Shown one piece after another: positions 2,251 to 60,932 of a DNA stretch of 64,000 bases. This DNA comes from an uncultured Candidatus Poseidoniales archaeon. Its GTDB lineage: Archaea; Thermoplasmatota; Poseidoniia; Poseidoniales; Thalassarchaeaceae. Numbering within the stretch: the stretch's first letter is position 1; the number at the start of each line of letters is the position of its first letter. A program made the position numbers and the translations under genes. The stretch spans positions 1,180-65,179 of the forward strand of contig CAZKVK010000001.1 of the NCBI GenBank assembly GCA_964556195.1, given 5' to 3'. The notes beneath the pieces were generated by a model that saw only the letters and a program-made list of their open reading frames with translations, made no database searches and was not told the origin of the DNA.

Positions 2251-5200
2251 TCAGGTATTCTGTTCGTACCAAAGGTGCCCATAGGCTACCCACTGATCCA
2301 TCGTCCATCCATCGGGCAATCCTCCCGGTGGTAGAGGCATTGCCCCCGGAGGCACAGGAACAGGGGGTGGCAGAGAGGGAGCGGATGAGGATATTACATC
2401 AGAGATTTCATCATCACTAACCGACTTACTCAACACCTCGCCAGCAGAGCCTGTTTCTAGAGCTATGGCCCTTCGCTCGGTTTGGGAACCAGAATGAAGC
2501 GCAGAACCCACTGGAATCAATTCCTCATCTGGACTCATGTTGCTTGCAGATTGTCTACGCATTCGAACTAATACAACTCCTAAACTAGCTAGAACTGCTA
2601 GGAAAACTATCGCTAGGGTCCACTTAGGCAATCCAAGCGAGACCATCAAGCAACCAATGCCATTACAGGAATCGTCTCTAGAACGAGAAACTTCTAGAAC
2701 AATTTCAGTATTTGTAATTGTAGATGCCCCTCCACTATCTGTAGAGTTAGCCCAAATTATAAAACTCGCTAAGCCGGGTGATGCTGAGTTTTTCGGAGAT
2801 GCTTTGGCGGTGATTTCTACGGAGTCTCCAACGGCAATCATATCGACTGTTATTGGAATAATTTCGATATTCCAATTTGTCAATTCACTCGCTTCAAAAC
2901 TAAACCCTGAGGGTTGGTTTCCTAGATTAGTTACAGAGATAATGAAAGTTTCATAAGAACCTGCTTTTATGTCATTAAGGGTCATCGCATCTGGAGACAT
3001 TTCGACAAATATCGAGGGGGTGATCTCGACCTTCAATTCGAAAGTATGCGTTACAGTTTCCATTCCTGGGGTGACTGCCTCAACAATAACTGGAACTGTC
3101 ACATCCATAATTCCAACAGGTAAATTGCCGGGCACATCCAAACCAACGGTCACGAGCGCTTCACGATTCATATCTAGAGTGGATGGAATCAGGGATTGGA
3201 AGCCACCGACCCAATCCATTGGAAGAGTTCCAATGCTCCAAGTTAGAGATAATGGAACATTTCCAGCATTTCTGACCCAAACATCCGTGGTGCCGGTTTG
3301 ACCTAATGATAGGAGAATCGTAGAGTCTTCGGATGCCTCAAGGTCTGCGATTTCCTGAACAATGAATCGGGTTGCGTTAACAACCATATCCCCGTCGACC
3401 AAAGTGGTTCGAAGTGTCAATGTATTCCTAGTATTCATCTCGGCATTCTCTGGCACCATCATTTGAACTGTAACTGTTGCAACATCCCCGGCTTCTATTG
3501 AGAATTGCAATTGTTCAGTCGTTTGCTGTTGGCCATAAACCAACTGTGCCGCCCAAGTGTTAAGAGAGGAACTGACCGTCATAGTGAAGTCCATTCGAAT
3601 ATTGCCATCATTGGAAACAATTACACTAGTTTCAGAGAGATTTCCATTTAGGACAGCTCTATCTTCTGCAAGCGCCAACGCGCCCAATATATTGCCTTCT
3701 TCGTCTTTCAAATCAACTTTGAAATCATAACTCTCGAAGACTGTGACCGTTGCGATATCTGTCGCTGAAACCGTGGAATCTTGTACAGATGTAGTTACAC
3801 AAGTAATGTCCTCTGTAACTCCAGCAGCTGGTTCCCCTCCATTTGCTGCTGGAATTCGAACATGTATAGGGAGTGGCAAGAATTGTAGTCGGCTAAGTGG
3901 ATCCAAAACTACCGATGAAGATCCACTGCTACCGATGTTCACTATCCATTGACTGGGGCTGTCACAACTGACTGAATATTGTGTATCTCCATTACCAGTA
4001 TTCCTTATTGATAGTGAATAAGTTGCAGTTTTTCCCGGTTTGGCCCCTAGGTCATTTCCGGTTCCTGCAAGAATTGTGAATAGACCTTCGACCCTTTCTA
4101 CCACAGAAGTAATTCTGATGGTGTGAGAAATGGTTGGAGCATCTTTATCGAACAAATTCAAATCATTAACGAAATTGCCCGGTAATGCATATCTAGCACC
4201 AGCGGAATTTTCTAAATCCGCATCTACATCTTCCAAGGTTAGTGTAACAATTCTCGAATCTCCACTCTCGCCCGATGCAGCAAGATCCCATGGACCTGTT
4301 TCGTTGAGTAATTTCCACCATTCATCAGTTGGAGATTGTAAAATTCCCTGTTCGTCAACCCTCTGAACAGGTGTAACAGATAGGCCAACCGAAATAGCAG
4401 AAGTGCCTTCATTTTGCAGCATAAATTCGTAAGTTAGCATACTACCTGTCCTTGGGTCTAATGTTTTGGTCAGGGCCTGTTCTAGTTCGGAAGGGGTAAT
4501 TGGAATTGAACCATCTTCCATAAGTGGAGTGATTCGAACTCCAATTTGAGAAATTTGGACAGTTAATTGATAGTGATTATTGTTGATTCCGTTGATTTCA
4601 TCATTCAACTCGACTACTGAATCTTCAGTGTCGAGTCTCAATTCCAGTAGATGCTCACCGGTTGTTTGGAAAACATGAGGGAAAGATAGCGACGTTGTAA
4701 CTCCGCCACCTAGTGAAGTCCGATCCGAAGTATAGAGAATTGTTCCTTCGGTGAGGTCCTCGATCTCAATTGTGTAGGCGCCGCTGGCTTGTGATGCTTG
4801 ATTTCGCCAAGCAGCTTCTACTAGCACCGTATCTCCCTGCAAAGGTGCTAAGATCGAAGTACTCAAAGAGCCTTCAAAGACTGTAAGGTCGGCTGTAGGT
4901 TGCTCTTGTAACAAGCCCGTAGCAACCAAAGCAAAACTTTGCGTCACTCCACCGGCATGACCAACGCCAATGGTCCACATACCACTATTTCCAGCTGGGA
5001 TTTTGATTCTCTCGATGTTATTCAATCGATCTGCAGACCCTCCTGTTGTTGAGTACCCATTGGAAAATACATTACCGTAGTATACAGTTCCATCCGGAGA
5101 GGTCGCTGTTAGATCTAAATCGTTGACTAATTTTGCAGCGCTTTGGTTTGCGATTGTAGATGCTTCTGAATCCACCCAGGCTAAAGTGACATCGAAATCG

Positions 5201-7041
5201 GTTGCCGAATCTACAGTAAAGGTGTAAACGAAACTATGTGCCGGATCCAGCTCTCGAGAGTCGTCAAATAGTAGGTCTAAATCAGTACCATCTTCATTGG
5301 GAGAAATTGAATTTGCAACATTAATCTGACCCCAGCCCTCAGAGGGGTTAGGGATGTTTGCAACCCCAATATCATCGGCTCCGTTGATCAATAATGCCTT
5401 GATTAAGTCCGAACGTGGCTCAGTAATTCCAACATCTGTTCTAAGATATTGGCGGACCATAGCAGCACCACCAGCGGCGACTGCAGTGGCCATCGAGGAG
5501 CCATTTAGGGCCATATACAGAGGAGTGGTTCCATCGGAATGGGTGCTAGAACTGCATGACTCTCCTTGCGCACTACTTGCCTCCTCAGCACGAGCTGAAC
5601 ACAACATAACACCTGGAGCAACCATATCTGGTTTGATTCGACCATCAAGTGTGGACCCCTTAGAAGAAAAATAGGGAACACTCCCCTCTGGGTCGGTGCC
5701 CATAGAACCGGTTGTTGATGCCCCGATAGTTAGGACATTCTTGGCTGAGCCGGGAGGGGTGACTGTATTACTACCATCTTCACCAAGGTCTCCTGAAGAA
5801 AATAGTACTAGGAAGCGAGGGTTATCGACAATGAATGCGTCGGCGGAACGGGAATCTGAACTGTATTCTCCAACTAAATTCTCGTTACCCCAAGAATTAG
5901 TTTGAATCCTAGCAGAATTCTGCCAAGCATGGGTGAACATATCGTATAGGGAACCCCATCTGGCAAGAATTCCAGAAGAGTCAACTTCTAGTTGGTAGAA
6001 ATGGAAAGTGGCAGCGGGAACCATTCCCAAGGCCGCAATGTCACCTGACCCGTCTCCAAGTAGAGTTGCAGTGACGTGGGTGCCATGACCTGAATTACTA
6101 TCAAGTGCCGAGTTATCTGGCCCAAACTGGTTGTAAATTCCTCTTACTCTACCGTCAAAATCGCCATGATCTGCATCTAATCCAGTATCTGAAATTGCGA
6201 TAACCTCGCCGCTTCCATTGAGAGTATTTGCAGAATTAACAAGAGCTTGGTTTATCCCTGCAACATCACTTGCAACCGAGTTATGAATTGACAATTTAGA
6301 GGCGAGGTGAATATGCAAAATTCTTCCATCCATCGCAAGAATTGGAATCCAAATTGCGTTAACCGATTTTGGCTGACAAAGATGAGAGTCGCAAATATCT
6401 CTTAAAGAAATACTTCCAGATATAGATTCAAGGTCCAATTGTAATTGCTTGAGTTCTTGGTTTGAAAGATCAGGAGCAGGTATTAGATCGATGTCCAAAG
6501 TTATTGCTTCCCTACCAGCAATGGCGGCAATCTCAGGGCTAACTCGCCATGCAATAGGTAATTCACCAGCCCACCGGACTCCCTCCATAGACCCTAATTC
6601 TAGAAGGGTGATTGCTGAATTGAATTGCATTGGGATTCTAATGATTAGAGTGTCGTCAGGAATAGAATCGATTACTACCAAACCTCTCTCCCGCAGGTTT
6701 TGTTGAAGTGTGGTCAAGTCGGCTAAAGTTGATTGCACAAGGGCGAGTCGAGTCCTATCCAATGCTTGAAAATCAACAATATTTTCCGGACCCAGCGGAA
6801 TCGGTTGAAGAATGGGGTCGAAGCTACCGTACGGAGAATGAATTAATCCTGATGTCGGCTTCAATTGGTGAGTGCTGGAAGAGACGCTTGAAAATGGTTG
6901 GAATTTTACATTTACTACTTCCTCTTCGCCATACTCAGAGTCAATTTCATTGTATGTATTAGTAGCTGAAGTAACGCCTGTCGACCAGCCGCTAAGTACG
7001 AGCATTAACAGGGTAATTAGAACCAGCCGGCGGTCATTCAC
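2251..7041 (-). CDS. Giant secreted S8 subtilisin-like serine protease (1596 aa) with signal peptide, C-terminal TM anchor and ~110-aa proline/tryptophan-rich cytoplasmic tail
   Basis: GTG start; N-terminal signal peptide MNDRRLVLITLLMLVLSGWSTGVTSA. Subtilase catalytic triad blocks AISDTGLDADHGDF, HGTHVTATLLG, GSSMATAVAAGGAAM. C-terminal hydrophobic helix LAIVFLAVLASLGVVLV followed by RMRRQ and the tail ...PPPVPVPPGAMPLPPGGLPDGWTMDQWVAYGHLWYEQNT. Confidence 0.85.
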   Translation of the reverse strand: MNDRRLVLITLLMLVLSGWSTGVTSATNTYNEIDSEYGEEEVVNVKFQPFSSVSSSTHQLKPTSGLIHSPYGSFDPILQPIPLGPENIVDFQALDRTRLALVQSTLADLTTLQQNLRERGLVVIDSIPDDTLIIRIPMQFNSAITLLELGSMEGVRWAGELPIAWRVSPEIAAIAGREAITLDIDLIPAPDLSNQELKQLQLDLESISGSISLRDICDSHLCQPKSVNAIWIPILAMDGRILHIHLASKLSIHNSVASDVAGINQALVNSANTLNGSGEVIAISDTGLDADHGDFDGRVRGIYNQFGPDNSALDSNSGHGTHVTATLLGDGSGDIAALGMVPAATFHFYQLEVDSSGILARWGSLYDMFTHAWQNSARIQTNSWGNENLVGEYSSDSRSADAFIVDNPRFLVLFSSGDLGEDGSNTVTPPGSAKNVLTIGASTTGSMGTDPEGSVPYFSSKGSTLDGRIKPDMVAPGVMLCSARAEEASSAQGESCSSSTHSDGTTPLYMALNGSSMATAVAAGGAAMVRQYLRTDVGITEPRSDLIKALLINGADDIGVANIPNPSEGWGQINVANSISPNEDGTDLDLLFDDSRELDPAHSFVYTFTVDSATDFDVTLAWVDSEASTIANQSAAKLVNDLDLTATSPDGTVYYGNVFSNGYSTTGGSADRLNNIERIKIPAGNSGMWTIGVGHAGGVTQSFALVATGLLQEQPTADLTVFEGSLSTSILAPLQGDTVLVEAAWRNQASQASGAYTIEIEDLTEGTILYTSDRTSLGGGVTTSLSFPHVFQTTGEHLLELRLDTEDSVVELNDEINGINNNHYQLTVQISQIGVRITPLMEDGSIPITPSELEQALTKTLDPRTGSMLTYEFMLQNEGTSAISVGLSVTPVQRVDEQGILQSPTDEWWKLLNETGPWDLAASGESGDSRIVTLTLEDVDADLENSAGARYALPGNFVNDLNLFDKDAPTISHTIRITSVVERVEGLFTILAGTGNDLGAKPGKTATYSLSIRNTGNGDTQYSVSCDSPSQWIVNIGSSGSSSVVLDPLSRLQFLPLPIHVRIPAANGGEPAAGVTEDITCVTTSVQDSTVSATDIATVTVFESYDFKVDLKDEEGNILGALALAEDRAVLNGNLSETSVIVSNDGNIRMDFTMTVSSSLNTWAAQLVYGQQQTTEQLQFSIEAGDVATVTVQMMVPENAEMNTRNTLTLRTTLVDGDMVVNATRFIVQEIADLEASEDSTILLSLGQTGTTDVWVRNAGNVPLSLTWSIGTLPMDWVGGFQSLIPSTLDMNREALVTVGLDVPGNLPVGIMDVTVPVIVEAVTPGMETVTHTFELKVEITPSIFVEMSPDAMTLNDIKAGSYETFIISVTNLGNQPSGFSFEASELTNWNIEIIPITVDMIAVGDSVEITAKASPKNSASPGLASFIIWANSTDSGGASTITNTEIVLEVSRSRDDSCNGIGCLMVSLGLPKWTLAIVFLAVLASLGVVLVRMRRQSASNMSPDEELIPVGSALHSGSQTERRAIALETGSAGEVLSKSVSDDEISDVISSSAPSLPPPVPVPPGAMPLPPGGLPDGWTMDQWVAYGHLWYEQNT

Positions 7042-7067
7042 GAGTTTGTCGGAGAATTGAGGGGCTT

Positions 7068-7099: not shown

Positions 7100-7124
7100 G
7101 TCAAGAAAAATCATTGAATATCAA

Positions 7125-11928: not shown

Positions 11929-14748
11929 ATGCGAGACAGGGCACTGGCCATGGCACTGATTATTGCATTACTGATTACATCTGCAGTGCCAAGCCAGTTA
12001 ATCGACGCTCCGAACCCTTCCGAATCTCCCTCAAATGATTCAGCTCTAGACCTATTATTCCTTGGAAATTCTTACACATCCAACAATCAATTAAATGTGA
12101 GAGTTAACAATTTGCTAGATGCTGCCGGATTTACGCCTGAAGTACAGGCTTTTACAAGCGGGGGGAAGACTCTTGCGTGGCATGGAGAACAAGCTGAAAC
12201 TGAGGGTTCTGAATGGTACGATGCCTTACGGACTCCTCACGATTATGTGCTATTACAGGACCAAAGCCAAGTTCCAGGATTCCCCACAAGTTCATCCTAT
12301 TGGCAAGACAGTATGCAAGGTGCTAGGATAGTAGATGATTTGGTCGATGACAATGGTGGAGATACCTTCTTCATTATGACTTGGGGTTACAGATTTGGTG
12401 ATGAGGGTAATAGTTGGAGATATCCTGACTATCAAACAATGCAACAGTATCTAGAAACTGGCTATCTAGCTTATGCAGAGAATCTATCATCAGATCAAAG
12501 ACCAGTCTTTATTGCTCCAGTTGGAATGGCATTTGAGAATATCTTTTTCTCTCTGTCTAATGCTACCGAAGATGGGACAATTTTCTCAGACTTATACGCA
12601 CCTGATGGCAAGCATCCTTCAATCCAAGGAACATATTTGGCTGCCTGTGTAATTCATGTTTCAGTGACCGGAGAATCTTCGGTGGGTTTGCCGAGCACAG
12701 GCGGAATTAATGGTTCAAGGACACTAGAGATCCAGCAATGGGCTGACCACACTGTGTTCAATACATCGGGATTAATCTACCCTTGGCAACTGGAAGATTT
12801 GGGAGTTGAATTTGGCGTGAATTCCGGTTCCATCTTCAACATAGACCCGAGTCTTACAATCGGGGTGGCGGCTAACTTTACCAATTTCGCCGAAGTAAAT
12901 ACCACTGCGCTGATTGAAATCTCCGGACCAGATGGCTGGGGTGTGTCTTGGGATTATCCTACAAGTCCAGAAGTTGGATACTCTTTCGATGCTCCAAGCG
13001 ATGTTGTACAATGGGTAGAATTTAGAGTGACTGCTCCAGAAGTTTCCGCAGGCTACCCTCTAGCAGATTCAATCCATGACTTCAGTGTGGCTTTGGTAGG
13101 GGACCATACTGGCAATCAGGATTGGTGGAATTTCTCATTGCGTTACGGTGAGTGGAAAGGGTTGCAGGTAATCGAAGGGGGAGGTGCTGCTTCAATTGAC
13201 CCAGGGGGGGTAGTAGATCTAGAATTCGTGTTACAGAACATTGGCAACTCGATTAACTCACTTGGAATAAATATCGCAGCAGTGTACGAAAATGGCTCCC
13301 CTGTTGAAACTCCTAGCCTATCTTTTGCCCATTATGGGTGGACCGCTATCGTTTACGACCGTGCAGGTTTAGAAGAGATGAATCCGGGAGAAGTCACTAC
13401 CGTTCGTATGCAAGTACAATCTCCAATATTAACCTCAGGGAAATTGGAAATGATGGTGCAATTTTGGGCGGATGGAGTAGAAGAGATTGAGAGACTAAAT
13501 CAGTCGATTATCATAGTTCCTCGATCGGGTGGAGATTTAGGCTTGACAAATGTCGACTGTATGTTCGATGTAAATCCTGGAGAAACTTGTTTCGTAGAAT
13601 TATTTATTGAAAACACTGGTGATGCAGCGTACATATTCAATCTCAGTGTAGCTGAAAAGCCTGATTGGCTAGTTGTGAATATTACAGAATATACTCGATA
13701 TTTAGGGCCCGGTCAAACCGTCCATGGAATCGATGTTTCAGCTTGGACAGCAATCGGCCTAGATGCGGGAATTACCGGAGAAGTGAGGGTAGAATTGGAA
13801 GTCGACGGTTGGGTTCCTGCTGAGGTGAGCTTTGATGTATCAATTGCCGCAGTTCATGCATGGGAGATTATTCGATCTGATGCTGAGGTGATGAATGGAA
13901 GATTGACTGGCTATTGGGAAGTAAAGAATACCGGGAATAGCCCAGACGGTCTGGTTGTAAGTGTAGAGTGTACCGATTTCACAGATTTTGGAGTGATTCC
14001 ACCAGATGGAGGAGAATCTACAAATGGTGAAGTTAGGTCATTTGAAATTCTCAATGTTCCAATAGGTAGTGCGCTCTTATTCGAAGTTTGGATGGACGTA
14101 CCTGAAGAGGTACCGGTTGCATCAAGTGCAATATTGACAGTCGAGATTCGTTCGTTCCGAGACCCATCAGTTCAACATACTGTGGAACATTCAACTCAAA
14201 TTGAAGGCGCACAGCCTAGTGAACCGACTGGACCGGATGAACCCAGTGCTTTCAGCAATTTTATGCAAAGATGGTTACAAACAATTCTAATCGTAATTGT
14301 GAGTATTGTAGGGGCCGTCGCAGTAGCCTTTGCGATACGGCACCGAATTGACGCAGACAGGGAATATTACAGAAGTAAGAATCCTGAGGTTGTTGTTGAG
14401 GAAGTCGGCGACTGGATGTCTAAATTTGAACAGAGTAATGAAGAAGAAGTTGAACTCATCCAGAGCCCAACGACGGACCTAGAATCATTTAAGCAGGAAT
14501 TCATGGATAAATCTGGAGACCACTCTAGAGAGGTTTCACCAGCACCCGAGGCAGAGATTATCGATGAGGCCGGTGATGTGCTGGACGAGGCTCAAGCAGA
14601 GGAGGCGATAATCGATGCAATCGAAATCGCAGACCAATTACAAGATAGCGACCTAATTCATCCAGATAACATAGTGCTGGACCTAGATGACTTCGATGAA
14701 AGACTGAGCTCAATCGGCAAAGATTTGCGTGATGATGAAGACCCGTGA
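11929..14748 (+). CDS. Large surface protein (939 aa): signal peptide, N-terminal SGNH/GDSL-like (DUF4886-type) hydrolase domain, Ig-like repeats, C-terminal TM anchor and ~140-aa acidic cytoplasmic tail
   Basis: Signal peptide MALIIALLITSAVPSQ. LLFLGNSYTSNN resembles the SGNH block I, and DGKHPS is a possible block V. C-terminal helix ILIVIVSIVGAVAVAFAI followed by RHR and a very acidic tail ending DDEDP. Confidence 0.7.
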   Translation: MRDRALAMALIIALLITSAVPSQLIDAPNPSESPSNDSALDLLFLGNSYTSNNQLNVRVNNLLDAAGFTPEVQAFTSGGKTLAWHGEQAETEGSEWYDALRTPHDYVLLQDQSQVPGFPTSSSYWQDSMQGARIVDDLVDDNGGDTFFIMTWGYRFGDEGNSWRYPDYQTMQQYLETGYLAYAENLSSDQRPVFIAPVGMAFENIFFSLSNATEDGTIFSDLYAPDGKHPSIQGTYLAACVIHVSVTGESSVGLPSTGGINGSRTLEIQQWADHTVFNTSGLIYPWQLEDLGVEFGVNSGSIFNIDPSLTIGVAANFTNFAEVNTTALIEISGPDGWGVSWDYPTSPEVGYSFDAPSDVVQWVEFRVTAPEVSAGYPLADSIHDFSVALVGDHTGNQDWWNFSLRYGEWKGLQVIEGGGAASIDPGGVVDLEFVLQNIGNSINSLGINIAAVYENGSPVETPSLSFAHYGWTAIVYDRAGLEEMNPGEVTTVRMQVQSPILTSGKLEMMVQFWADGVEEIERLNQSIIIVPRSGGDLGLTNVDCMFDVNPGETCFVELFIENTGDAAYIFNLSVAEKPDWLVVNITEYTRYLGPGQTVHGIDVSAWTAIGLDAGITGEVRVELEVDGWVPAEVSFDVSIAAVHAWEIIRSDAEVMNGRLTGYWEVKNTGNSPDGLVVSVECTDFTDFGVIPPDGGESTNGEVRSFEILNVPIGSALLFEVWMDVPEEVPVASSAILTVEIRSFRDPSVQHTVEHSTQIEGAQPSEPTGPDEPSAFSNFMQRWLQTILIVIVSIVGAVAVAFAIRHRIDADREYYRSKNPEVVVEEVGDWMSKFEQSNEEEVELIQSPTTDLESFKQEFMDKSGDHSREVSPAPEAEIIDEAGDVLDEAQAEEAIIDAIEIADQLQDSDLIHPDNIVLDLDDFDERLSSIGKDLRDDEDP

Positions 14749-17381: not shown

Positions 17382-19385
17382 ATGGAGGGCCCTCAGAGGG
17401 GAGGAGTGGTGCTGGTTGTAGCACTACTAATGCTAATCAGTATACCATATTCACCAGTTGCGGCTGAGGAAGATGGATCCTGTTGCGTATCGCAGGATTT
17501 CGACCTATTTTTGCTTGGAAGCGCTGACGACGGATCGCTTTCTCCATTTGATTCTGACCTAGATGAGGAATTTGAGCAATTTGTAACTCCTTCCATTCAA
17601 GGATTGGTGGAAATTGGAACTTGGGAAATTACTTGGGGATTACAAGGAGATTACCCTGATTCGACTTGGGAATTCCGAATCCCATACGAGGTTGAATCTG
17701 CCGCTGGAATACAGATTAATGCGACAGTGGGGGTCAATATTGGTAGCACCTACTTTGAGGGAGATGCCGGTGCTGGATTATTCCTAACCAACGAGGGCGA
17801 AGTAGTGATCCCTGTGGAAGTTATAGCAGACGAAGTTCGCTCGGGTGACAGGATAAAATTGACTTTTTCAGTTCGAAGTTTATCCTTCTCCAGCCCTGGT
17901 GATGACGCCGGAATTCGCTTCGTTTGGGGTACGGATGAATTCGCTGGAAGAATATCAATGAAATTCCCCCTAGTCAGTATCGACATGAAAGAACCCAGTG
18001 TAAATGGTAGATTGGTATACTTCCCAATCCTGCTAAAGTCCGGATTTGGAGATAGGATGTGGTCAGCATCAAGCGGAGGTATGGCAGTAGCCAGCAATAC
18101 TATCCCAGATAGTCCAATAGCAACTCCAACGAATAATGGAGTAGAGGTTACATTTGCCTGGCAGATTCCTGAATCCTCAGAATCTGGAACATACGTGGTT
18201 GCATTCCATCTCACTCCACAAACTTCCCTTAGAATTGAGGCTAATCGAACCTATGATATTGGAGCAGGAGAAGATGGCTCAAACACAGGCGGATGGTATC
18301 CTGCGGTGGAACCTCTGAGGACTGGTGGGACCAATCTGCTTGTTGATGTTGAGGCTAAATTTGATGGAGATTCAGTCCAAAGAGAAGTGAAAATCGAATT
18401 TGACGGAGCTATGTCGCAATGGGTTCGTTGGGGCTTAGACAATATCGGAAACAACAGCCTATCTTCGAATAGTTGGTGGCGAAACCTACGTACTTACTCA
18501 GATAGTATTCCCAATTCAGAGTACAATAATGGACAGGTTGACGATTCAGAAATCGCAGCTCTAAACAGCCATCTCGTTGGCTCGGCTTCAGATATGAAGT
18601 CGTTCCTTGCCAATGGATTGTATTTGGATGCAGAGTCGATACTCGGAGTCAATCCCGTCAATCTTGGACCGACTGAGATTACAATCGATTTGGGTCACAC
18701 TCGAGCATTCAGTGCCGAGAGTGTGACTATTCGAATTGATACTTCTCACAAGGTAAATGCCGGTGAAAGGCAACAATTGATTGAGTCATTTATTCGACCG
18801 AGTGATGATGATTTGTACACCAAAGTTGAGTTGAAGGTAGAAATTCGCTCAACTGCTCTACAAGGACTTGGGGGGGTTGCGGCAGAAGATATTGAGGCAA
18901 AGCACCGAAGGTGGATTTTGTTAGAGATGGTTACCATCGATGAGGATGATCTAGACCCAGAGGCATCATTCCGAGTCGAGTTTGTACCAACCGGTGGTGC
19001 ACTCTACTCTCCATTAGTCTCAGCCATGGTCTCTGTCTTCATGTTAGTCTTGGCACTAGGATTGGGTATGGTAATGACAAGGAAGCGGGCAAGGGCACCT
19101 TCCATGCTTACAGTAGTTGTTCTTGGGGGGCTTTCCTTAGCATTGTATGTCTTAGGACTTGATATGCCGTTTGTCCTTGGTGTTGTAGCATCCAGCATGT
19201 TACTGGTTTTCCCTGTGGCACTAGTATCCCCTAGATCGAATTTTGCTGAGAGGGGCGATGTTGGTAAACGAGCCAGTGCCCACGTGAATTGTCCGAAGTG
19301 TGGGGAATCTAATGCCGTTGAATCAGAAGTTAGGCCACTTAGGTTGGAATGCATCGGCTGCGAATCTACCTTACGCCTAGAATAA
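17382..19385 (+). CDS. Secreted/membrane protein (667 aa) with signal peptide, C-terminal 3-helix membrane segment and terminal zinc ribbon
   Basis: Signal peptide GGVVLVVALLMLISIPYSPVAA. C-terminal hydrophobic helices (SAMVSVFMLVLALGLGMV, VVVLGGLSLALYVLGL, VVASSMLLVFPVALV) followed by CPKCGESNAVESEVRPLRLECIGCESTLRLE. Confidence 0.65.
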   Translation: MEGPQRGGVVLVVALLMLISIPYSPVAAEEDGSCCVSQDFDLFLLGSADDGSLSPFDSDLDEEFEQFVTPSIQGLVEIGTWEITWGLQGDYPDSTWEFRIPYEVESAAGIQINATVGVNIGSTYFEGDAGAGLFLTNEGEVVIPVEVIADEVRSGDRIKLTFSVRSLSFSSPGDDAGIRFVWGTDEFAGRISMKFPLVSIDMKEPSVNGRLVYFPILLKSGFGDRMWSASSGGMAVASNTIPDSPIATPTNNGVEVTFAWQIPESSESGTYVVAFHLTPQTSLRIEANRTYDIGAGEDGSNTGGWYPAVEPLRTGGTNLLVDVEAKFDGDSVQREVKIEFDGAMSQWVRWGLDNIGNNSLSSNSWWRNLRTYSDSIPNSEYNNGQVDDSEIAALNSHLVGSASDMKSFLANGLYLDAESILGVNPVNLGPTEITIDLGHTRAFSAESVTIRIDTSHKVNAGERQQLIESFIRPSDDDLYTKVELKVEIRSTALQGLGGVAAEDIEAKHRRWILLEMVTIDEDDLDPEASFRVEFVPTGGALYSPLVSAMVSVFMLVLALGLGMVMTRKRARAPSMLTVVVLGGLSLALYVLGLDMPFVLGVVASSMLLVFPVALVSPRSNFAERGDVGKRASAHVNCPKCGESNAVESEVRPLRLECIGCESTLRLE

Positions 19386-22670: not shown

Positions 22671-22731
22671 CGAGGCCGCTAACGATGCGGGTCGCTTGAA
22701 GCATTCTAAGGTGAAGTGGTGTCGGAGCGAT

Positions 22732-26043: not shown

Positions 26044-26976
26044 TTAGAGGAAAGCGCCGCAACTACTACAGTATGCGGTACCACTATTGTTTACGGACCC
26101 ACAATCTTGACAGGGAATTACAGATTTTGCGAGGGATGATGGTACTGATGGTTGCCACTGGTTGCCTTCCTTCGCGTCCCAGTTGGTTTGGGGGGCTGGG
26201 TTTTTCACTGTTCTCTTTGCCAGTTCTTTCTCGGCTTTTGCAGCCGCTTTAGCAGCAATCTTCTCTGCCTTTGCTACAGCCTTGGCTTCCTTCCGCGCCT
26301 CTTTCTTTGCTCTCTTTTCATCTTTCGCGGCTTGTTTTTCTCGACGAGCCAATTCCTTTGCAAGGCGTCGCTGAGCGGAGGCTTCTGCACTGGCGCCAAG
26401 GGCGCCGGTGGGTTTGGTGAAATCTTCTAATTCCGTTGAGTCTGACTCAGGATTATATGAGACCCCTTCTACCTGAACATCTACTTCCATTCGAGAATCT
26501 GCCGAATCTAGTTCAATTTCAGCCCCTTCCTTATTCAAATCCGATATTCTTCCACTCATTCTCTTTTGGAATCGTAAACCTGCTCTTCCTCTTGGTTCGC
26601 TACGGGCTTGAGCCTCTAATTTTTCCAATGCAGCATCTCCTCGACTCCACAACCCTTTGTCTTCAAGCCGGTACATACTCGATAGACCCTTGATAGCACT
26701 GGAGCGATGATATTCGTGATCCTCAACTACTCGATACCTCAAGTACATGATTATGCCCAAAACTATCGCTATTCCGTGAATAATTGCTTGTGCAAGGATG
26801 TCTTGTTTGAGTAAATCCTCAATGTTTGGAAGACCGAATCTAAGAGCAACCACACAGATCGTAGGTGCTAGAAGCAATCCCGCGCTAATCAGCGGAGAGC
26901 GCTGTACCATACTCGCGGCTCCCAAATCAATGGTTTGAATTATTCGTGAACATGGGAGCGTGATTATCCATAGCAA
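26044..26976 (-). CDS. Membrane protein (310 aa): 3 N-terminal TM helices, K/A/E-rich low-complexity helical region, C-terminal zinc ribbon
   Basis: TM helices at the N-terminus. RRLAKELARREKQAAKDEKRAKKEARKEAKAVAKAEKIAAKAAAKAEKELAKR repeat region. Terminal CQDCGSVNNSGTAYCSSCGAFL. Confidence 0.6.
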   Translation of the reverse strand: MLWIITLPCSRIIQTIDLGAASMVQRSPLISAGLLLAPTICVVALRFGLPNIEDLLKQDILAQAIIHGIAIVLGIIMYLRYRVVEDHEYHRSSAIKGLSSMYRLEDKGLWSRGDAALEKLEAQARSEPRGRAGLRFQKRMSGRISDLNKEGAEIELDSADSRMEVDVQVEGVSYNPESDSTELEDFTKPTGALGASAEASAQRRLAKELARREKQAAKDEKRAKKEARKEAKAVAKAEKIAAKAAAKAEKELAKRTVKNPAPQTNWDAKEGNQWQPSVPSSLAKSVIPCQDCGSVNNSGTAYCSSCGAFL

Positions 26977-42500: not shown

Positions 42501-43830
42501 AGCATTCTCCACCTCCTGTTGATATCGAATTGTTAGCTAAGTAGAGTCGTGCGGGTGTAGGTGATGGGGCTTGAGTTCCATATTCGCCGGCAAGAATTGG
42601 TTCTCTAGCGGTTTCTGAAATCGTATTGTTTTCAGCGATTACATCAAAGCTTCCCAATAGCCAAAGACCGTTCCAACCACCAATTGGTCCAATCTCATTA
42701 TTGTGTATTTCAGCCTTGGAAGAATACACTGCAATTCCAGATCCTTCCGCTGCTCCTGCTAAGTTATTGTTGTGAATTCGAACATTCGCGCCAGAGTATG
42801 CGGTGATTGGAGTTCGTTCAGCTGTTGTGATGATATTATCTGCTATTTCTACATCGTACTCAGTATTGCCAATTGCCTTCAAGCTGTTGACATCGATACC
42901 ATTGCAGGTGACTGAAATAGTGGAATTAGTCACCTTACCAGCCGAGTTCCTGATACTTATTCCAAAATCCCCCCCAGTAACTTGGGAGTTTTGGACTCGA
43001 ATAAAGGTCTGAGATGCCCAAATAGCAGACCTACCTCCATCTCTATTTCCACAGCCCTTGTTGGTTGATTGGAAGCTTGCATCTTGGAAAATCATAGGAG
43101 AAATTGGAGTTCCGCCGCCATAAATTTGCACCGCTTGGCCAGTGACCCCACTCTCATCATCATTACCAGCAACATACTCTCCACCGATGAAAGTGGGTTG
43201 TGCCAAATTCGCTGCTAATACACTAGTTGTGTTGATATCTTCAAATCTCATATCTCGAAGAGTAGGGCTTGCTCCGTCTAGGATTAGTGCACCATATCGA
43301 TATTCGTACTCCAGCTGAATATAGAAGGGAATGCCCCATGCTCCATCAAAATGCATACTTCTCATGCCCGATTGTGACAAGTCCATTGTGTCGCGAAGAA
43401 TTATTCCTTCTCCACATGATGGATCTTCAATCCATATTTGTGAACTTCCAGACCCCAATCCATAGCATTCTCCAGTCGCATTTGGTACCGCAGGGTCTGA
43501 CCATGTAAGGGTAATCGGGTTTCCTGAAGCGGCATTGCCATTAGAACCACAGGAAGCGACTCCAGCACAGAGGTTGCCTCTAACATCGAGCATTGTACCA
43601 TTTGGAAATGAAATGTCAGTTCCGGGGTTGATAATTAGTTTAGCACCAGCGGCGATGGTAACGTCTCCAGTAAGTTGGTGTGTTCCACTCCATGTCTCAA
43701 TCCCAGTAATCGTTCCACTGGTAGTTTCATTATTCGCAGAGACTGGTATAGCGGGACCCACTAAAGCCAACATAGTGCTAGTCATCATTAGGAATACTAG
43801 GAACTGGCTTCTTGCTCGGGCACTCATCAT
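39595..43830 (-). CDS. Giant surface protein (1411 aa): signal peptide, right-handed parallel beta-helix region, Ig-like/fibronectin-like domains, C-terminal TM anchor with acidic Trp-containing tail
   Basis: Signal peptide FLVFLMMTSTMLALVGPAIPVSA. Repetitive N.(I/V)..N beta-helix rungs (NNTISETAREPI, NNSISTGGGE, NNEINAGGNADGI). Cys-bracketed acidic insert CSDGEDNDGDLLLDTDDPDC. C-terminal helix VMIVAIVAVIIALLCATLFF then EEDEDDEADES...HPGWLWDPEKEDWVPDPEHTSE. Confidence 0.85.
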   Translation of the reverse strand: MMSARARSQFLVFLMMTSTMLALVGPAIPVSANNETTSGTITGIETWSGTHQLTGDVTIAAGAKLIINPGTDISFPNGTMLDVRGNLCAGVASCGSNGNAASGNPITLTWSDPAVPNATGECYGLGSGSSQIWIEDPSCGEGIILRDTMDLSQSGMRSMHFDGAWGIPFYIQLEYEYRYGALILDGASPTLRDMRFEDINTTSVLAANLAQPTFIGGEYVAGNDDESGVTGQAVQIYGGGTPISPMIFQDASFQSTNKGCGNRDGGRSAIWASQTFIRVQNSQVTGGDFGISIRNSAGKVTNSTISVTCNGIDVNSLKAIGNTEYDVEIADNIITTAERTPITAYSGANVRIHNNNLAGAAEGSGIAVYSSKAEIHNNEIGPIGGWNGLWLLGSFDVIAENNTISETAREPILAGEYGTQAPSPTPARLYLANNSISTGGGECSSQKWWGGSFTCPAIMAHRSGATIVDNEINAGGNADGIRATGALLDVRRNVFNVQGTGAILQHYDSGFADSQQYGTLAFFSNNEWNGVSVTYNVSKSSVTVQSEYIPSPPPDEHPVLLRWADQEAWVQNGWQNGVIPHEVRACATCDDFTPYNFPLALNMDNNSTIFTFSNLSNLDLSKVKIETQPTKYAVQVQRAELVRFQTLVNGQRVENANVLIEDALGNDLYSLETDSDGYTPWFSLASNFHLDFRGLAGGDNPDGFADDEYEDSCSDGEDNDGDLLLDTDDPDCDYSAGTRELSLYRYTAYRFGYGIDSGEFTLSDTTYQDTLFLDNDPPSVSVIQNDGDSFRRVVNLTGSAYDGTWAGIYETDELAQWDQKGFVHAVEIKDPFTSDWSATGYAIDSSGAEPGYVSRNNHPFSSWYYEYDMSGRQEGDYTFEFRAFDGLEYSPILTRSIKVNTEAPTISVTSPSTQSTHSDGTVTFEGSAHDPYGCPFDCGTDIDQIYFKIEGPNYNVITSTEGGTEWSWTWDFSGLPRELATYTFTIWASDSDFCKGYIDECEVVVIDLQIDNQNSRPFVSLTSPQSGQIYAVDEKSIISGVARDNDGEITRVDVEVIDVSNGYINVFSGAVTEIESNGYWEMEWDSRLLTHNMQYLIKARSYDGYEYSDWMEVQVVADNPPDADNSRPTFDGTNWQSEITLYCEFDTTSQNPCTTIEIDLLEFFDDVDGVNSLILSVYDDPARSSDDEFGLVINIGIDGVAFYDPKSMGFYNEDMDTWSLSNVIFLATDPFGSKEISTPVSFNVVPIEFYVGPPDQTTASDDELITFSGSGLPGKTVRVTLGGIQVNSTVVLEDSTWELGIPGAMVSKPVSPVFSISGSESIQGDEISPPSSDGGISPVMIVAIVAVIIALLCATLFFSGVISFEEDEDDEADESATVESTGELVRSDEHPGWLWDPEKEDWVPDPEHTSE

Positions 43831-56170: not shown

Positions 56171-56248
56171 GTTGCATACGAATCGGTTAGGAAAATAATG
56201 CATTCCTATGGTCAATCTCTTGTACGAAAGAGAAAAACTACTCTTTCA

Positions 56249-56947: not shown

Positions 56948-57020
56948 GCGCTCATGCGAGAAGAACTCTCGGTTTCTTACTCATGCCGCCGATTCCTTCA
57001 TTGAGGTCCTGTTGTTCGGA

Positions 57021-58721
57021 ATGATAATGAGAGAAATAAAGACTGTTCTGTTGGGTATTTTATTGCTAACTTCTCTAGTATCTGCGGCTTCTCTGACTGC
57101 CAATGCACAGTCATCAGAAATTGTGATTGATTCGGCTGTTGAATGGGTAGAAGATCGTTCATTAGATGGTGATCTGAGAATTGTTCCAGGAGGTTATTTG
57201 ATTATTGATGGAATAACTCTAGACATTGCAGATGATGTAACAATTATGGTAGAGGACGGTGGTACTCTGGATGTTACTGGAAATAGTCAAATGATTGCAG
57301 ATAACCCCCCAACCGGATTAGCGGGATACGGATATTGGGATGAAGAAAATCGCTCTGCTGTTTTGATTCCGGGTTCAGACTATGATGGACCATTTGAGGC
57401 GACATTTTACTCAGGTGAGATGTCTTCATTTTATGGTGGGCAAGCGATGATTGAAGGACAAGAACCAATCGACCTAAACGGTAGTGAATTTACTCTTTCT
57501 TTTGATGAAGATACCGATGATGTGTGGGTTGGATTAATTGGCTATGGCCACCAATCAGTCCACTTAGCAACAGTTACTATGACTCCCGATCTTGGATCTT
57601 CGATAACCTATGATGCTATTGATTTACAACACAGAAATATGATGGCTCTAAATACAGATCAGAGTACTTGCAATTTTGTTATAGACGGGTATGCTTTGTT
57701 TTACGAATCATCCCTATTAGGGTGTGAAATAATCGTCAACGGAGGGCTGCACATATACTCATCAAATATTGACCGTGTTGGGCCTATCATTTCAAACGAG
57801 AATTCTGAGTTGGTACTGGAAGGGTGGACCACATTTTCGATGAGTAAAGCAGACCACGATGTACGTGCTCATGCTAATACGATTTTAGATTGGGGGCAGT
57901 ATGTGACAGGAAGTGGAGGTCATACTGATCGATGGGAGAGGGTTCTTGACTCTCAAGAAATCCACTTTGATGCAGCAGGGATTTTGTTCAGAATACTCAA
58001 CTTTGGACAATACGAAATTACTTCCTCGACTTACTTCAGTGATGAAAATGGAGTAGGGATGATTGACTCCGGTGATTCTAGAACCGTCGAAATTGGCTGG
58101 GCTGATGGAAGTGTTTGGACTGAATCGGCGAGTATCGAAATCATCGAGTATCGGACTGGATGGAATATGGATGCATCAATGGATGATTACGGCGGTGGGA
58201 TTATTCCCTTGACGTGGGAACAAGTAATCGTTGTAGATGATAATACTCCTTTCATCGAATTTATCTCAGTTGATTTCCAAAATCCAACCGAGAGTGTTTC
58301 TAGGGGAAGTGGAGGCGTTGGTTTATTCGCTACAATTGCCAATCGTGGAACTGCACCGGCCATAGTTTACTTCACCTGTGATGTAACTGAAACTGGAAGC
58401 GCAGCACAGATGACAAGTTACCCTGGTGGATTAATTGAGGCTGGTGAGGAAGTCACTATTCAATTCTCATGGATGAATAGTGAAACTGAGTTGGCAAGCC
58501 TAACCTGTGAGATACTCACACCAACCCAATTGGTGGAGGATGATGCATTTGGTGGAGGTACTGCCACAACTGAACAAATTACATGGATTGACGCAGCAGA
58601 TGATGAAGGAGGTTCAATTCTACCTGTTGTGGTGGCTTTTGTAATCGCAGTTTTAGCTATGGCTGCATTCTTCTTCAAGATGACTAAATCCTCTAAAGAT
58701 GATGAAGAAGAACTGTACTAG
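57021..58721 (+). CDS. Surface protein (~566 aa) with signal peptide, C-terminal TM anchor and short acidic tail
   Basis: Start set at MIMREIKTVLLGILLLTSLVSAASLTANA, a signal peptide; the upstream ATG at 56871 would overlap carS. C-terminal helix ILPVVVAFVIAVLAMAAFFF + KMTKSSKDDEEELY. Confidence 0.65.
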   Translation: MIMREIKTVLLGILLLTSLVSAASLTANAQSSEIVIDSAVEWVEDRSLDGDLRIVPGGYLIIDGITLDIADDVTIMVEDGGTLDVTGNSQMIADNPPTGLAGYGYWDEENRSAVLIPGSDYDGPFEATFYSGEMSSFYGGQAMIEGQEPIDLNGSEFTLSFDEDTDDVWVGLIGYGHQSVHLATVTMTPDLGSSITYDAIDLQHRNMMALNTDQSTCNFVIDGYALFYESSLLGCEIIVNGGLHIYSSNIDRVGPIISNENSELVLEGWTTFSMSKADHDVRAHANTILDWGQYVTGSGGHTDRWERVLDSQEIHFDAAGILFRILNFGQYEITSSTYFSDENGVGMIDSGDSRTVEIGWADGSVWTESASIEIIEYRTGWNMDASMDDYGGGIIPLTWEQVIVVDDNTPFIEFISVDFQNPTESVSRGSGGVGLFATIANRGTAPAIVYFTCDVTETGSAAQMTSYPGGLIEAGEEVTIQFSWMNSETELASLTCEILTPTQLVEDDAFGGGTATTEQITWIDAADDEGGSILPVVVAFVIAVLAMAAFFFKMTKSSKDDEEELY

Positions 58722-59902
58722 CAGCTTGTGACCTGAGTCCAAGCCTCATCATCAGCACTTTCCTCACTTAATTCATAGTAGGTCGTCGACACATGCGCTG
58801 TCCTGTCCCCCCAAGGTGGACTTTGAGTCACTGTGACAGTGAACTCGTAGCAACCGTAATCGGATTCCTGCCAATCATCTCTAGGGATGTAATACATATT
58901 GATTGCAATGTCTTCAACTGACCCATCGAGTACCAATTCTGAACCAAAATCACCAACTGTTGAAGATCCAGAACCATATTCACCAGACATGGAGTCCCAT
59001 GTTGCCTCGCCATTAACAACAGATACAGAAGGATAGGAAATAGCAGTAGTGCCGTCTTTGGATAAAACTGCATCTAATTCAAAATCTGCATGAGAAAGAG
59101 GTGCCGGTGGATTTCCAACGGATGTTTCTAGACCAATCCAAGCCTTCAGACCAACTCCGACAACACAGTTGTCGTGGCCACCAGCACAATCATTGCCTTG
59201 CCCCATGGCTGGAATAGCTTGATTTTTTGTTGCTGTTATCGTTCTCTCAAGATGTGCTGAATTCAATATGAAAGAAGACGAAGAGTCTCCTGTGTCTACA
59301 GATACAACGTACCTAGATCCATCTGCTGCGTTGCCGGAATAAAACTCGGAAATTGGAAGAATCAATCTGCCATATTTTCCATTTCCATCGTTGAGATTAA
59401 TCGACAGAGGCATGACTGATTCCCATACTTTCTCGCCGGCATAAGTTATCGAAACATCAGCATCTCCTGAAGACCCTCCAAAGAGCCCTCCTGACTCCCT
59501 AATTGTTAGAGTGATAGATTGCGCATCTGATGATAAATCGCTATCTGTAATTGTAATTGAACTCGAAGACAGACTACTAGAGATGAATGGAGATGCTAGA
59601 AGAAGCAAAAGAGTTACAGAAATCACTTCGGTGTACTTTCTATTCAAACCATCCCACATAAGGAACCAGCCAGTTCCACCTAATAGAATTGGGATAATTA
59701 TTGCAAACGCGAAATCACTCTGTATTGATGGAAGAGAATATACCCACATCGAAATTACAGATACAATTGCAGTTCCGATTCCGATAAAGAGGGAATTAGG
59801 AATTAGACTCTTATTTTCTGATTCGGTGACCGCTACAGCGACTACCTCATCTGCTGGTTGTTGAACGTCTATAGCCTTCTGAAGCAATCCACCATCACTC
59901 AT
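58718..59902 (-). CDS. membrane protein (394 aa) with 2-3 N-terminal TM helices and a Ser-rich extracellular domain
   Basis: Hydrophobic helices LFIGIGTAIVSVISMWVY, AFAIIIPILLGGTGWFLMW, VISVTLLLLLASPFI. 4-nt convergent overlap with the upstream gene. Confidence 0.55.
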   Translation of the reverse strand: MSDGGLLQKAIDVQQPADEVVAVAVTESENKSLIPNSLFIGIGTAIVSVISMWVYSLPSIQSDFAFAIIIPILLGGTGWFLMWDGLNRKYTEVISVTLLLLLASPFISSSLSSSSITITDSDLSSDAQSITLTIRESGGLFGGSSGDADVSITYAGEKVWESVMPLSINLNDGNGKYGRLILPISEFYSGNAADGSRYVVSVDTGDSSSSFILNSAHLERTITATKNQAIPAMGQGNDCAGGHDNCVVGVGLKAWIGLETSVGNPPAPLSHADFELDAVLSKDGTTAISYPSVSVVNGEATWDSMSGEYGSGSSTVGDFGSELVLDGSVEDIAINMYYIPRDDWQESDYGCYEFTVTVTQSPPWGDRTAHVSTTYYELSEESADDEAWTQVTSC

Positions 59903-59990
59903 GCCACTAACCTCTCAGGTCAGCAAGGCGTCACCTGCGTCGGTTATCAACCCAATGCCACCGAAGGTGGCAAAGATATACTATAGAAGA

Positions 59991-60932
59991 TTAAAACAAA
60001 CGGGCGTCTAGTGGTTCTAACTCGTCTGATTCTTCATCATCGATTAGTCTTGGAGTTCGGCCAGCAAAGGCCGCGGCTGCTAGAGCGGTGATCATCATGG
60101 TTCCAATCAATTCAAAGCCTGGGAGGTAAACTCCTCTGATGTAAATGGTCATTGTTTGAATTTGGTAATTCGGGATGCCCTCAGTTCTTACGGAATATTC
60201 CGACGTAGCCTTGAATTGTAAAGAGAAATACGTATCCGTCCAACCTTGGTTCTTCGGAGTTCTCATCTGAACTCTAATCTTCTCAGGAGGTGCCATAGAT
60301 TCAATCTCTACACTTACCAACGGAATACTCAGTTGGAATCCATCATCGTTCAATTGATCATAATTTTCGATTTCAATATTGAATCGATCAAGAGCATTTC
60401 CATCATTGTATACGTCGAATACCAAGTTGTAATCAACCTTCGGACGCAATTGCAAGAAGGCTACTTCTGAGGCCACTCGGAGTCGGCTGAACTGCCTGAT
60501 GATAGCCATGACGTTTGCAGCTGACGGTTCGCTGGTAACCGGAACTCCATTTGCCATCGTAACCTCAGCGCTGATGGTTACCTGATGTTGCCCTTCTGGT
60601 GCCCGAAGTTCGGCTCGGACTAGAACCTGGAATGATACTTCCGAGCCTCCACCTATTGACATGGTGGCTGGACCGGAGAACGCGAGCACTCCGGCTTGAA
60701 TCTGAATTCGTACCTTTTCTTGGTGGATGGTTGGATTCTCGATTCTGCAGTTGATTATACTAGATCTGGTAGCACCCGGATAGACATCAATAGGTTGAGG
60801 CTGGTCACAGGTCAAGGTAATGTCTGGAACCGCTCCTTGGGCTTGAACAGGTGCTGCTGCAGCCCATGTGCTGAGGAAGTAGACCACCAGAATCATCAGG
60901 GCAGGACGAACCTTACTTGCAGTGCTCATCAT
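59991..60932 (-). CDS. surface protein (313 aa) with signal peptide and C-terminal TM anchor plus acidic tail
   Basis: Signal peptide ALMILVVYFLSTWAAAAPVQAQGA; C-terminal GTMMITALAAAAFAG followed by RTPRLIDDEESDELEPLDARLF. Confidence 0.6.
   Translation of the reverse strand: MMSTASKVRPALMILVVYFLSTWAAAAPVQAQGAVPDITLTCDQPQPIDVYPGATRSSIINCRIENPTIHQEKVRIQIQAGVLAFSGPATMSIGGGSEVSFQVLVRAELRAPEGQHQVTISAEVTMANGVPVTSEPSAANVMAIIRQFSRLRVASEVAFLQLRPKVDYNLVFDVYNDGNALDRFNIEIENYDQLNDDGFQLSIPLVSVEIESMAPPEKIRVQMRTPKNQGWTDTYFSLQFKATSEYSVRTEGIPNYQIQTMTIYIRGVYLPGFELIGTMMITALAAAAFAGRTPRLIDDEESDELEPLDARLF

Follow-up and report, generated by a model that had tools for sequence, protein, structure and literature searches.

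A transmembrane (TM) segment close to the C-terminus is an established mode of anchoring for archaeal substrates of the Sec and Tat pathways, with examples including the S-layer subunit SlaB of Sulfolobus, the oligopeptide-binding proteins and alpha-amylase of S. solfataricus and HVO_0844 of H. volcanii (PMC3387779; PMC12462473). Other exported proteins, such as the S-layer glycoprotein of Haloferax volcanii, carry a PGF-CTERM signal and are substrates of the archaeosortase ArtA; the Haloferax enzyme processes a tripartite signal that is not located at the extreme C-terminus, and in genomes with an ArtA gene the predicted substrates may number no more than one (PMC6098224). Here we analyse eight genes for large surface proteins in a 64,000-nucleotide (nt) stretch of DNA, referred to as the window (contig CAZKVK010000001.1, assembly GCA_964556195.1), from an uncultured archaeon of the Candidatus Poseidoniales, and compare their products with these systems. 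A prediction made from the DNA letters had described the eight as an island of proteins of one unusual build, comprising a signal peptide, a very large ectodomain, a single C-terminal TM helix and a charged cytoplasmic tail, and had proposed that they follow a dedicated, uncharacterised anchoring and sorting logic. We favour another reading, to which we assign a probability of about 0.72, namely that the large surface proteins are held by the generic archaeal C-terminal TM class and that no new sorting system is at work. The details that we consider modestly novel are conserved motifs at the ends of the tails and a PGF signal that is followed by a conserved extension.

Anchors of the eight proteins

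The reading frames, coordinates and quoted tail strings (DDEEELY, DDEESDELEPLDARLF, ...DDEDP and EEDEDDEADES) of the original prediction proved exact on re-checking (Table 1). Judged from their sequences, five to six of the eight products would be classic bitopic type I membrane proteins, and these resemble the described C-terminal TM substrates of the Sec pathway in possessing a putative signal peptide of the signal peptidase I type, a large ectodomain, one C-terminal helix and a short end predicted to be cytoplasmic. Unlike those substrates, the window proteins have longer tails (14–178 amino acids, aa) that are often strongly acidic and whose end motifs are conserved across orthologues. We know of no function described for such tails in archaea. 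The subtilase, the 939-aa protein, the beta-helix protein, the 566-aa protein and the choice-of-anchor T protein fit the proposed build well and the 706-aa protein fits it with a tail of no special charge, but the giant AglB is polytopic and the 667-aa protein has three helices and a zinc ribbon at its C-terminus. Since the common build is the standard archaeal one, the eight tails have no motif in common and two of the eight proteins are constructed differently, a dedicated, unusual sorting architecture is unsupported in the form in which it was proposed.

Signal peptides were recognised heuristically by a basic n-region, an h-region of 12–17 residues and small residues at positions -1 and -3. 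Such signal-like N-termini are present in seven of the eight proteins, as had been claimed for all of them, but AglB lacks one. The significance of the helices was assessed with 2000 composition-preserving shuffles of the last 250 residues. A single further hydrophobic helix near the C-terminus is found in the subtilase, the 939-aa, beta-helix, 566-aa and 706-aa proteins and, weakly, in the choice-of-anchor T protein. The shuffled sequences matched the observed hydropathy in three or fewer of the 2000 trials for the subtilase, the 939-aa protein, the beta-helix protein, AglB and the 566-aa protein; the helix of the 706-aa protein is marginal (103/2000). Lysine or arginine residues follow the helix immediately in seven of the eight proteins (flanks RMRR, RHR, NRNLWR, KMTK, RTPR and TRSGSRR), and these flanks, together with a zinc ribbon at the end of the 667-aa protein, suggest that the tails are cytoplasmic.

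Table 1 Features of the window. Positions are window coordinates; KD, Kyte–Doolittle hydropathy of the helix; shuffles, trials out of 2000 that matched the observed hydropathy
Gene (nt)	Strand	Product	C-terminal helix	Helix properties	Tail
2251..7041	(-)	1596-aa membrane-anchored subtilase: signal peptide, Peptidase_S8 aa 276-571, CARDB/Ig-like repeats	aa 1474-1492, nt 2566-2622	KD 2.63, shuffles 3/2000, flank RMRR	nt 2254-2565, 104 aa, net charge -7
11929..14748	(+)	939-aa type I surface protein, weak DUF4886/SGNH-like N-terminal domain	aa 785-803, nt 14281-14337	KD 2.92, flank RHR	nt 14338-14745, 136 aa, net -31, 32% D+E
17382..19385	(+)	667-aa protein: signal peptide, ectodomain, three close C-terminal TM segments, putative cytoplasmic zinc ribbon	aa 546-564, 575-593, 597-615
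22732..24852	(+)	706-aa type I protein	aa 510-528, nt 24259-24315	KD 2.15
30256..36009	(-)	1917-aa secreted protein: signal peptide, Asp-rich TSP3 (thrombospondin type 3) repeats, 19% D+E	no C-terminal TM
39595..43830	(-)	1411-aa beta-helix/Big_7 adhesin-like type I protein (Pfam Beta_helix, Big_7)	aa 1339-1358, nt 39757-39816	KD 3.14, shuffles 0/2000	nt 39598-39756, 53 aa, net -18, no K/R after helix
45247..54780	(-)	3177-aa giant AglB/STT3 oligosaccharyltransferase, polytopic, not a signal-peptide protein	nt 45286-45336		12 aa, basic
57021..58721	(+)	566-aa type I protein, unknown fold	aa 533-552, nt 58617-58676	KD 2.91, shuffles 1/2000	nt 58677-58718, 14 aa, KMTKSSKDDEEELY
58718..59902	(-)	394-aa protein, three N-terminal TM segments; downstream of choice-of-anchor T gene
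59991..60932	(-)	313-aa choice-of-anchor T protein: signal peptide, two Ig-like domains	aa 275-291, nt 60060-60110	KD 1.87, flank R	nt 59994-60059, 22 aa, net -5, acidic, end PLDARLF

The charge of the tails is less uniform than had been supposed. Four of the eight are strongly acidic (32–38% aspartate plus glutamate, D+E) and one is short and basic, but three are unremarkable in this respect, among them the 178-aa cytoplasmic region of the 706-aa protein, which is not markedly charged and is probably a folded domain. This protein belongs to no Pfam or NCBIfam family. The GTG start proposed for it lies within the 5' end of a long open reading frame (ORF) on the other strand (20865..22910), with an overlap of ~180 nt (22732-22910), so that one of the two starts is probably located further downstream. 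Part of the tail acidity is background, since the proteome of the window is acidic overall; its proteins average 14.5% D+E versus 7.1% K+R, with net charges of approximately -0.04 to -0.12 per residue in the ectodomains.

The Pfam and NCBIfam content of the set is typical of exo-enzymes and adhesins, in line with the reading that we favour. The subtilase has a Peptidase_S8 domain (Pfam, 1.3e-39) and CARDB repeats, and the best NCBIfam resemblances of both subtilases in the window include the mycosin model TIGR03921, at scores far under its cutoff. As in the mycosins of type VII secretion systems, the S8 domain would lie outside the cell and be held by a C-terminal TM helix; the protein is nevertheless no member of this family (38.9 bits against a cutoff of 278.75), being much larger at 1596 aa and carrying CARDB/Ig repeats and a conserved cytoplasmic tail of 104 aa.

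Two of the eight break the pattern. AglB contains ~20 hydrophobic segments before aa 853, with about nine extra ones ahead of the STT3 core, and the WWDYG catalytic motif at aa 952. Pfam STT3 (PF02516) is matched with 60.9 bits against a cutoff of 24.5 (2.1e-16), and the subfamily model TIGR04154 stays below its cutoff (163.7 versus 450 bits). An external extension of ~2150 aa with CarboxypepD_reg/DUF4198-like domains and Ig domains like those of choice-of-anchor T proteins leads to the terminal TM helix and the tail TR(S/G)GSRRPGAPF-COOH, which is unchanged at 60% identity; the orthologues are 3179-3189 aa long and 60-89% identical. The 667-aa protein, whose three segments were located by hydropathy, shares with its orthologues the conserved motif CPxCG-x16-CxxCxSTLR(L/I)E. 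Another membrane protein of the window (26044-26976, minus strand) likewise ends in a putatively cytoplasmic zinc ribbon (CQDCG..CSSCG), and a proline-rich, zinc-ribbon membrane protein of similar design is encoded near a distant choice-of-anchor T homologue in another locus (L104, 6729-7751).

The route that we envisage for the bitopic proteins would begin with export by a Sec-type signal peptide and its removal by signal peptidase I. The ectodomain would be translocated and probably N-glycosylated by the encoded AglB, the single C-terminal hydrophobic segment would serve as a stop-transfer anchor, the basic residues that follow it would in most cases fix an N-out/C-in topology, and the short tail would stay in the cytoplasm.

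The choice-of-anchor T protein and its PGF

According to the original prediction none of the eight proteins ends in a PGF-CTERM/archaeosortase signal, an LPXTG motif or a lipobox, which stands for seven of them. The last 260 aa of each protein contain no LPXTG motif (regular-expression search), inspection of the N-termini revealed no lipobox ([LVI][ASTVI][GAS]C) at the end of the signal peptides, and no PGF or PEF motif is present in seven of the listed proteins. No C-terminal sorting model of NCBIfam or Pfam scores on the whole proteins or on the isolated tails, even at E<=10; the scans of the tails, which covered PGF-, PEF- and VPXXXP-type signals as well as WW/DUF2510-like domains for the tryptophan-rich motifs, yielded noise only. 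The eighth protein, 59991..60932, departs from the claim in that a PGF stands directly before its helix, in a tripartite-like arrangement that is homologous to archaeosortase-type signals of distant relatives and touches the condition under which the prediction itself was to count as refuted.

This protein matches the NCBIfam choice-of-anchor T family NF041740 with 266.4 bits (cutoff 70, E=2e-79) over positions 2-259 of the 259 in the profile. The sequence YLPGF(E/G) directly before the helix is invariant among the full-length homologues listed. In the orthologues, column identity is 0.99 for IRGVYLPGFE, falls to 0.38 in the spacer and rises again at the terminus (L308 0.89, D309 0.86, R311 0.97, F313 0.97). 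An AlphaFold2 model, with a mean pLDDT of 68, comprises two beta-sandwiches and a helix at residues 274-290; a fold search of the PDB with this model returned generic tandem Ig-like matches only (TM-score <=0.39).

HMMER, run exhaustively against 1.84 billion representatives, recovered 91 full-length relatives, which were sorted by their C-termini. Twenty have a PGF-like motif, a helix and a short basic end, seven a PGF and a longer tail, and 21 a plain helix with a basic end; of the remainder, 19 combine a helix and a long poly-acidic tail, 17 have long tails of other kinds and seven lack a helix. P271-G272-F273 are among only nine invariant columns and align with the PGF of relatives that end just after their basic cluster, and such relatives give sub-threshold matches to PGF-CTERM (P0253, E=0.019), to Loki-CTERM (P0268, 19.7 bits versus 19.9) and to Heimdall-CTERM. 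It follows that the C-terminus of this protein holds an archaeosortase-type signal, as a relic or a variant, that has been extended by ~20 residues.

The protein thus resembles the PGF-CTERM substrates of ArtA, typified by the S-layer glycoprotein from Haloferax volcanii, and the Loki- and Heimdall-CTERM proteins in its PGF, short Ala-rich helix and basic residue. It is unlike them in that it matches no sorting-signal HMM and in what follows the helix: one to two arginines (R/RxxR) and then a conserved acidic extension of ~20 aa that ends in LDxRLF, such that the basic cluster is not terminal. TIGR04126 and PF18204 give no match at E<=10 to the full-length protein, to its C-terminal 67 aa or to a tail-deleted 49-aa version, a weak negative given that control relatives with terminal PGF signals are themselves sub-threshold. 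Among the 1910 ORFs of all sampled loci it is the only protein with a PGF and a TM segment, family scans detected no archaeosortase gene within the window, and we found no paper linking archaeosortase or ESCRT to Marine Group II (MGII)/Poseidoniales. The ancestral anchor of the family may have been an archaeosortase-type PGF tripartite signal, of which this member would have kept the PGF while gaining the conserved acidic extension.

Conserved tails and rival readings

The orthologue set combined 80 genome loci and 13 metagenome loci with six further contigs and the results of two protein searches; the comparison of tails drew on the listed proteins other than 22732..24852. The tails are conserved among orthologues about as well as the ectodomains, and are under purifying selection. 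An alignment of the C-termini had been expected to deliver a common motif, but inspection by eye and regular expressions identified none across all eight tails; each family has its own, and Pfam finds none of the tail elements.

For the subtilase, 59 unique orthologue tails are conserved down to ~40% ectodomain identity, in the blocks EELIPxGSAL and ERRAAALDT..VSxxEI, a proline-rich stretch and GLPxGWTM(D/E)QWxxYG. Mean column identity is 0.74 in the terminal block, 0.77 in the S8 catalytic domain and 0.60 in the other parts of the ectodomain; the most distant orthologues have lost the tryptophan-rich block and have proline runs at the end. A protein search with the 104-aa tail for other ectodomains returned only 12 short fragments. 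One of these, P0132 on a 605-bp metagenome contig, has a different TM helix and juxtamembrane tail and shares its last 29 residues with the subtilase tail (PPLPATGLPEGWTMDQWVAYGHLWYEQNT), from which it appears that the terminal module is portable between proteins. In the beta-helix protein the acidic spacer is variable, but the tryptophan-rich motif (E/D)HPGWLWDxxKxEWVPDP, which no Pfam model recognises, does not change among 10 orthologues with identities down to 65%.

The tail of the 939-aa protein is conserved in ~50 orthologues (DWMxKF, ESP..F..KS, HPxN and LDLDDF(D/E)ERL) and closes with ..RDDEDP in the clade of the window and with (E/D)(F/L)DL(D/E)(L/I)-COOH in most of the more distant orthologues. 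The element DDF(D/E)xRL also closes the tails of unrelated CARDB/FG-GAP giants of 1875-1898 aa from more distant Poseidoniales, which have a TM segment and an acidic tail (L102 18679-20934 and L103 17095-20937; EVDEFEDRLRRLLDR and LDDFERRLKRIRRDE). Homology between these giants and the 939-aa protein was considered as the cause of the shared element and rejected, the best BLASTP match having an E-value of 0.002 and involving Ig-like repeats only. The family of the 566-aa protein retains a tail format of basic flank, five to eight acidic residues and (L/M/I/Q)(Y/F)-COOH down to ~50% identity (homologues listed, up to 120); each of the 46 unique tails carries a net negative charge, and tyrosine or phenylalanine is the last residue in 35 of them (…EEELY, …EDMLF, …DDIQF, …SKDEY). 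A CD36-like neighbour ending in ..SSKDEY was discarded as a further example of an aromatic end, its tail not being conserved in orthologues. Among choice-of-anchor T orthologues a net negative charge is found in 52 of the 53 unique tails and a terminal phenylalanine in 50, and distant relatives have long poly-acidic tails ending in …DEFDFL, …FFDDL or …DLDDL. In representatives of this family a hydrophobic last residue is found in 16 of 19 long acidic tails versus 8 of 41 short basic ones. Several unrelated families share a format of basic flank, acidic run and hydrophobic or aromatic free C-terminus, and the conservation of the tails is compatible with recognition by cytoplasmic partners. We picture the tails as family-specific, mostly disordered acidic linkers that would present conserved motifs at or near the free C-terminus, where these may act as docking sites for cytoplasmic proteins, with different partners for each family.

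A number of points weigh against anchoring by the generic C-terminal TM class as we describe it. Signal peptides were called by a heuristic and helices from hydropathy rather than by dedicated topology or signal-peptide predictors. In the beta-helix protein no lysine or arginine follows the helix, which runs directly into EEDEDDE (SGVISFEEDEDDE), a 'negative-inside' flank that is kept in orthologues, and for this reason the orientation of the protein rests on its signal peptide and ectodomain only. By hydropathy the helix of the choice-of-anchor T protein is not significant (666/2000 shuffles), and its call consequently rests on conservation, the AlphaFold2 helix and homology. The like end motifs of unrelated families, both the acidic run with its hydrophobic or aromatic end and DDFxxRL, hint at more shared logic than 'family-specific' would imply, and this analysis identified no cytoplasmic partner of the tails.

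The question arises as to whether such shared logic amounts to a tail-recognition system of the Poseidoniales, in which one or a few adaptors in the cytoplasm would recognise C-terminal short linear motifs and sort, cluster, localise or turn over the surface proteins. Candidates for such motifs would be the acidic run with a hydrophobic or aromatic C-terminus, DDFxxRLxx-hydrophobic, and the proline-rich stretch with GWTMEQWxxYG. Type I membrane proteins of eukaryotes have tail signals of this kind, namely acidic cluster/dileucine motifs, EEY/F-COOH and the MIM1 helix of ESCRT-III, some of which need a free C-terminus; all are portable between unrelated ectodomains. The likeness of the window tails to these signals is an analogy of pattern only; the DDFxxRLxx-hydrophobic tails of the 939-aa family and the L102/L103 giants are a partial match to the MIM1 consensus, (D/E)xxLxxRLxxL(K/R), and we know of no homologous reader proteins (adaptors, CAP-Gly or MIT) in Poseidoniales. 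In favour of recognition, the end format recurs in the 566-aa, choice-of-anchor T (..LDxRLF) and 939-aa (..FDLDL/..FDLEI) families, whose ectodomains are unrelated, the hydrophobic ends of choice-of-anchor T tails go with the long acidic type, DDF(D/E)xRL is shared with the unrelated giants, the GWTMDQWVAYGHLWYEQNT end recurs on the different TM segment and tail of P0132, and tail composition persists as the sequence drifts. Yet no motif is present in all tails, those of the subtilase, the beta-helix protein, AglB and the 706-aa protein do not fit, and the motifs were set post hoc from few independent families. The ..DDEDP end of the 939-aa protein in the clade of the window and the ..DEEDNK or ..SQDEN ends of some 566-aa relatives are exceptions within the families themselves; moreover no candidate reader protein was identified, the Pfam scans of the tails were empty, and acidic disordered tails are to be expected where the proteome is acidic. 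We regard such a system as unlikely. The last of these arguments, taken to its end, would make the acidic tails functionless by-products of an acid-shifted proteome and of disordered sequence after a stop-transfer helix, as the excess of D+E over K+R, the net negative ectodomains and the fast drift of the spacers (column identity 0.38) might suggest. The conservation data disfavour this, and we consider it very improbable: D+E makes up as much as 32-38% of the tails, or two- to threefold the background, their terminal residues are nearly invariant over long divergence, and the longer ones hold blocks that are conserved like catalytic domains.

For the choice-of-anchor T protein there is the further alternative that it is the substrate of an archaeosortase-like enzyme, which would cut at or near the PGF, attach a lipid and release the helix together with the acidic tail. 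Its invariant PGF, directly before a short Ala-rich helix and an arginine, and the alignment of this PGF with that of family members ending in a TM segment and a basic cluster, themselves sub-threshold CTERM matches, speak for this alternative, as do the existence of single-substrate genomes and of non-terminal processing by ArtA (PMC6098224). Against it stand the failure of the PGF-CTERM model to match the protein at E<=10 with or without the extension, the single R/RxxR, and the conservation of the 20-aa tail, which in its last residues equals that of the fold and would be hard to explain if the tail were discarded; nor was any other PGF and TM protein present in the sampled ORFs, an archaeosortase gene in the window or a paper tying archaeosortase to MGII. 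On balance we find processing doubtful. A bolder combination is that MGII archaea employ portable tail motifs, read by dedicated adaptors or scaffolds that position, cluster or recycle surface enzymes, and that the choice-of-anchor T tail was grafted onto the PGF signal or replaced it; we deem this improbable as well. If the reading based on tail motifs were true, a euryarchaeon that lacks endomembranes would be using tail signals in a eukaryote-like manner.

Core-genome setting and meaning for Marine Group II

The window represents an ordinary part of the core genome of a Marine Group IIb (MGIIb) archaeon (Ca. Thalassarchaeaceae, Poseidoniales), a part that is rich in genes for the surface proteome, and is not an island as had been proposed, since housekeeping genes are interleaved with the surface genes, synteny is conserved across related loci and the GC content is flat (43-51% along the window). 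Situated between the large surface genes are those for adenylate kinase (adk), GAPDH, a GXGXG-domain protein, the beta subunit of PheRS (pheT), RNase HII, GluRS (gltX), rpS15, dnaJ, a NUDIX fusion, a rhodanese protein, an MBL hydrolase, purD and carS. The NUDIX fusion (27515-28495, minus strand) joins in one ORF a pyroglutamyl peptidase (Peptidase_C15, aa 4-169) and a NUDIX hydrolase domain (aa 196-313). In a scan anchored on GAPDH the gene order of the window recurred at 80 loci of MGIIb genomes, and among related genomes overall it is kept in more than 80. Homologues of the choice-of-anchor T protein with 84-91% identity are annotated as Ca. Thalassarchaeaceae or Poseidoniales, and the protein is also present on marine metagenome contigs. 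The eight listed genes, which had been credited with more than half of the window, together account for 28,149 nt, or 44%.

Several neighbours of the listed genes deserve mention. The product of 58718..59902 matches nothing in Pfam or NCBIfam, and its adjacency to the choice-of-anchor T gene is kept in ten loci (L001-L006 and L100-L103) in which the choice-of-anchor T proteins are 64-100% identical. Across these loci the pair partner measures 394-430 aa and is encoded on the same strand as the choice-of-anchor T gene and always 3' of it. It is possibly a functional partner of the choice-of-anchor T protein, perhaps within a two-component surface structure. Thirty-five nt downstream of the beta-helix adhesin gene, 37008-39560 (minus strand) encodes a protein with helix–turn–helix, AAA (STAND-like) and TPR domains that is far better conserved than its adhesin neighbour (94-96% versus 89-92%). 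TPR domains can bind acidic C-terminal peptides. The 1917-aa protein with TSP3 repeats provides a contrast case inside the window, being exported without a C-terminal anchor, and probably corresponds to one of the 'thrombospondin' adhesion genes whose wide occurrence in Poseidoniales was reported by Rinke et al. (PMC6461757).

The surface set encoded in the window comprises a membrane-tethered subtilase, a hydrolase-like protein, a beta-helix adhesin, small Ig-like proteins and the N-glycosylating AglB. Archaea of Marine Group II rank with the most abundant in surface oceans; to our knowledge none has ever been grown in culture, nor has their cell envelope been characterised. Our analysis corrects the annotation of three of their proteins, namely a giant AglB, a membrane-tethered subtilase and a choice-of-anchor T protein with a PGF relic, and yields a short list of conserved cytoplasmic tail motifs. 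It suggests that the exo-enzymes and adhesins of MGII are held mostly by plain C-terminal helices rather than by archaeosortase-dependent lipid anchoring, a mode of anchoring that bears on protein degradation and particle attachment by these organisms. If the tail motifs are read by cytoplasmic partners, they would represent a new layer of surface-protein organisation in archaea.

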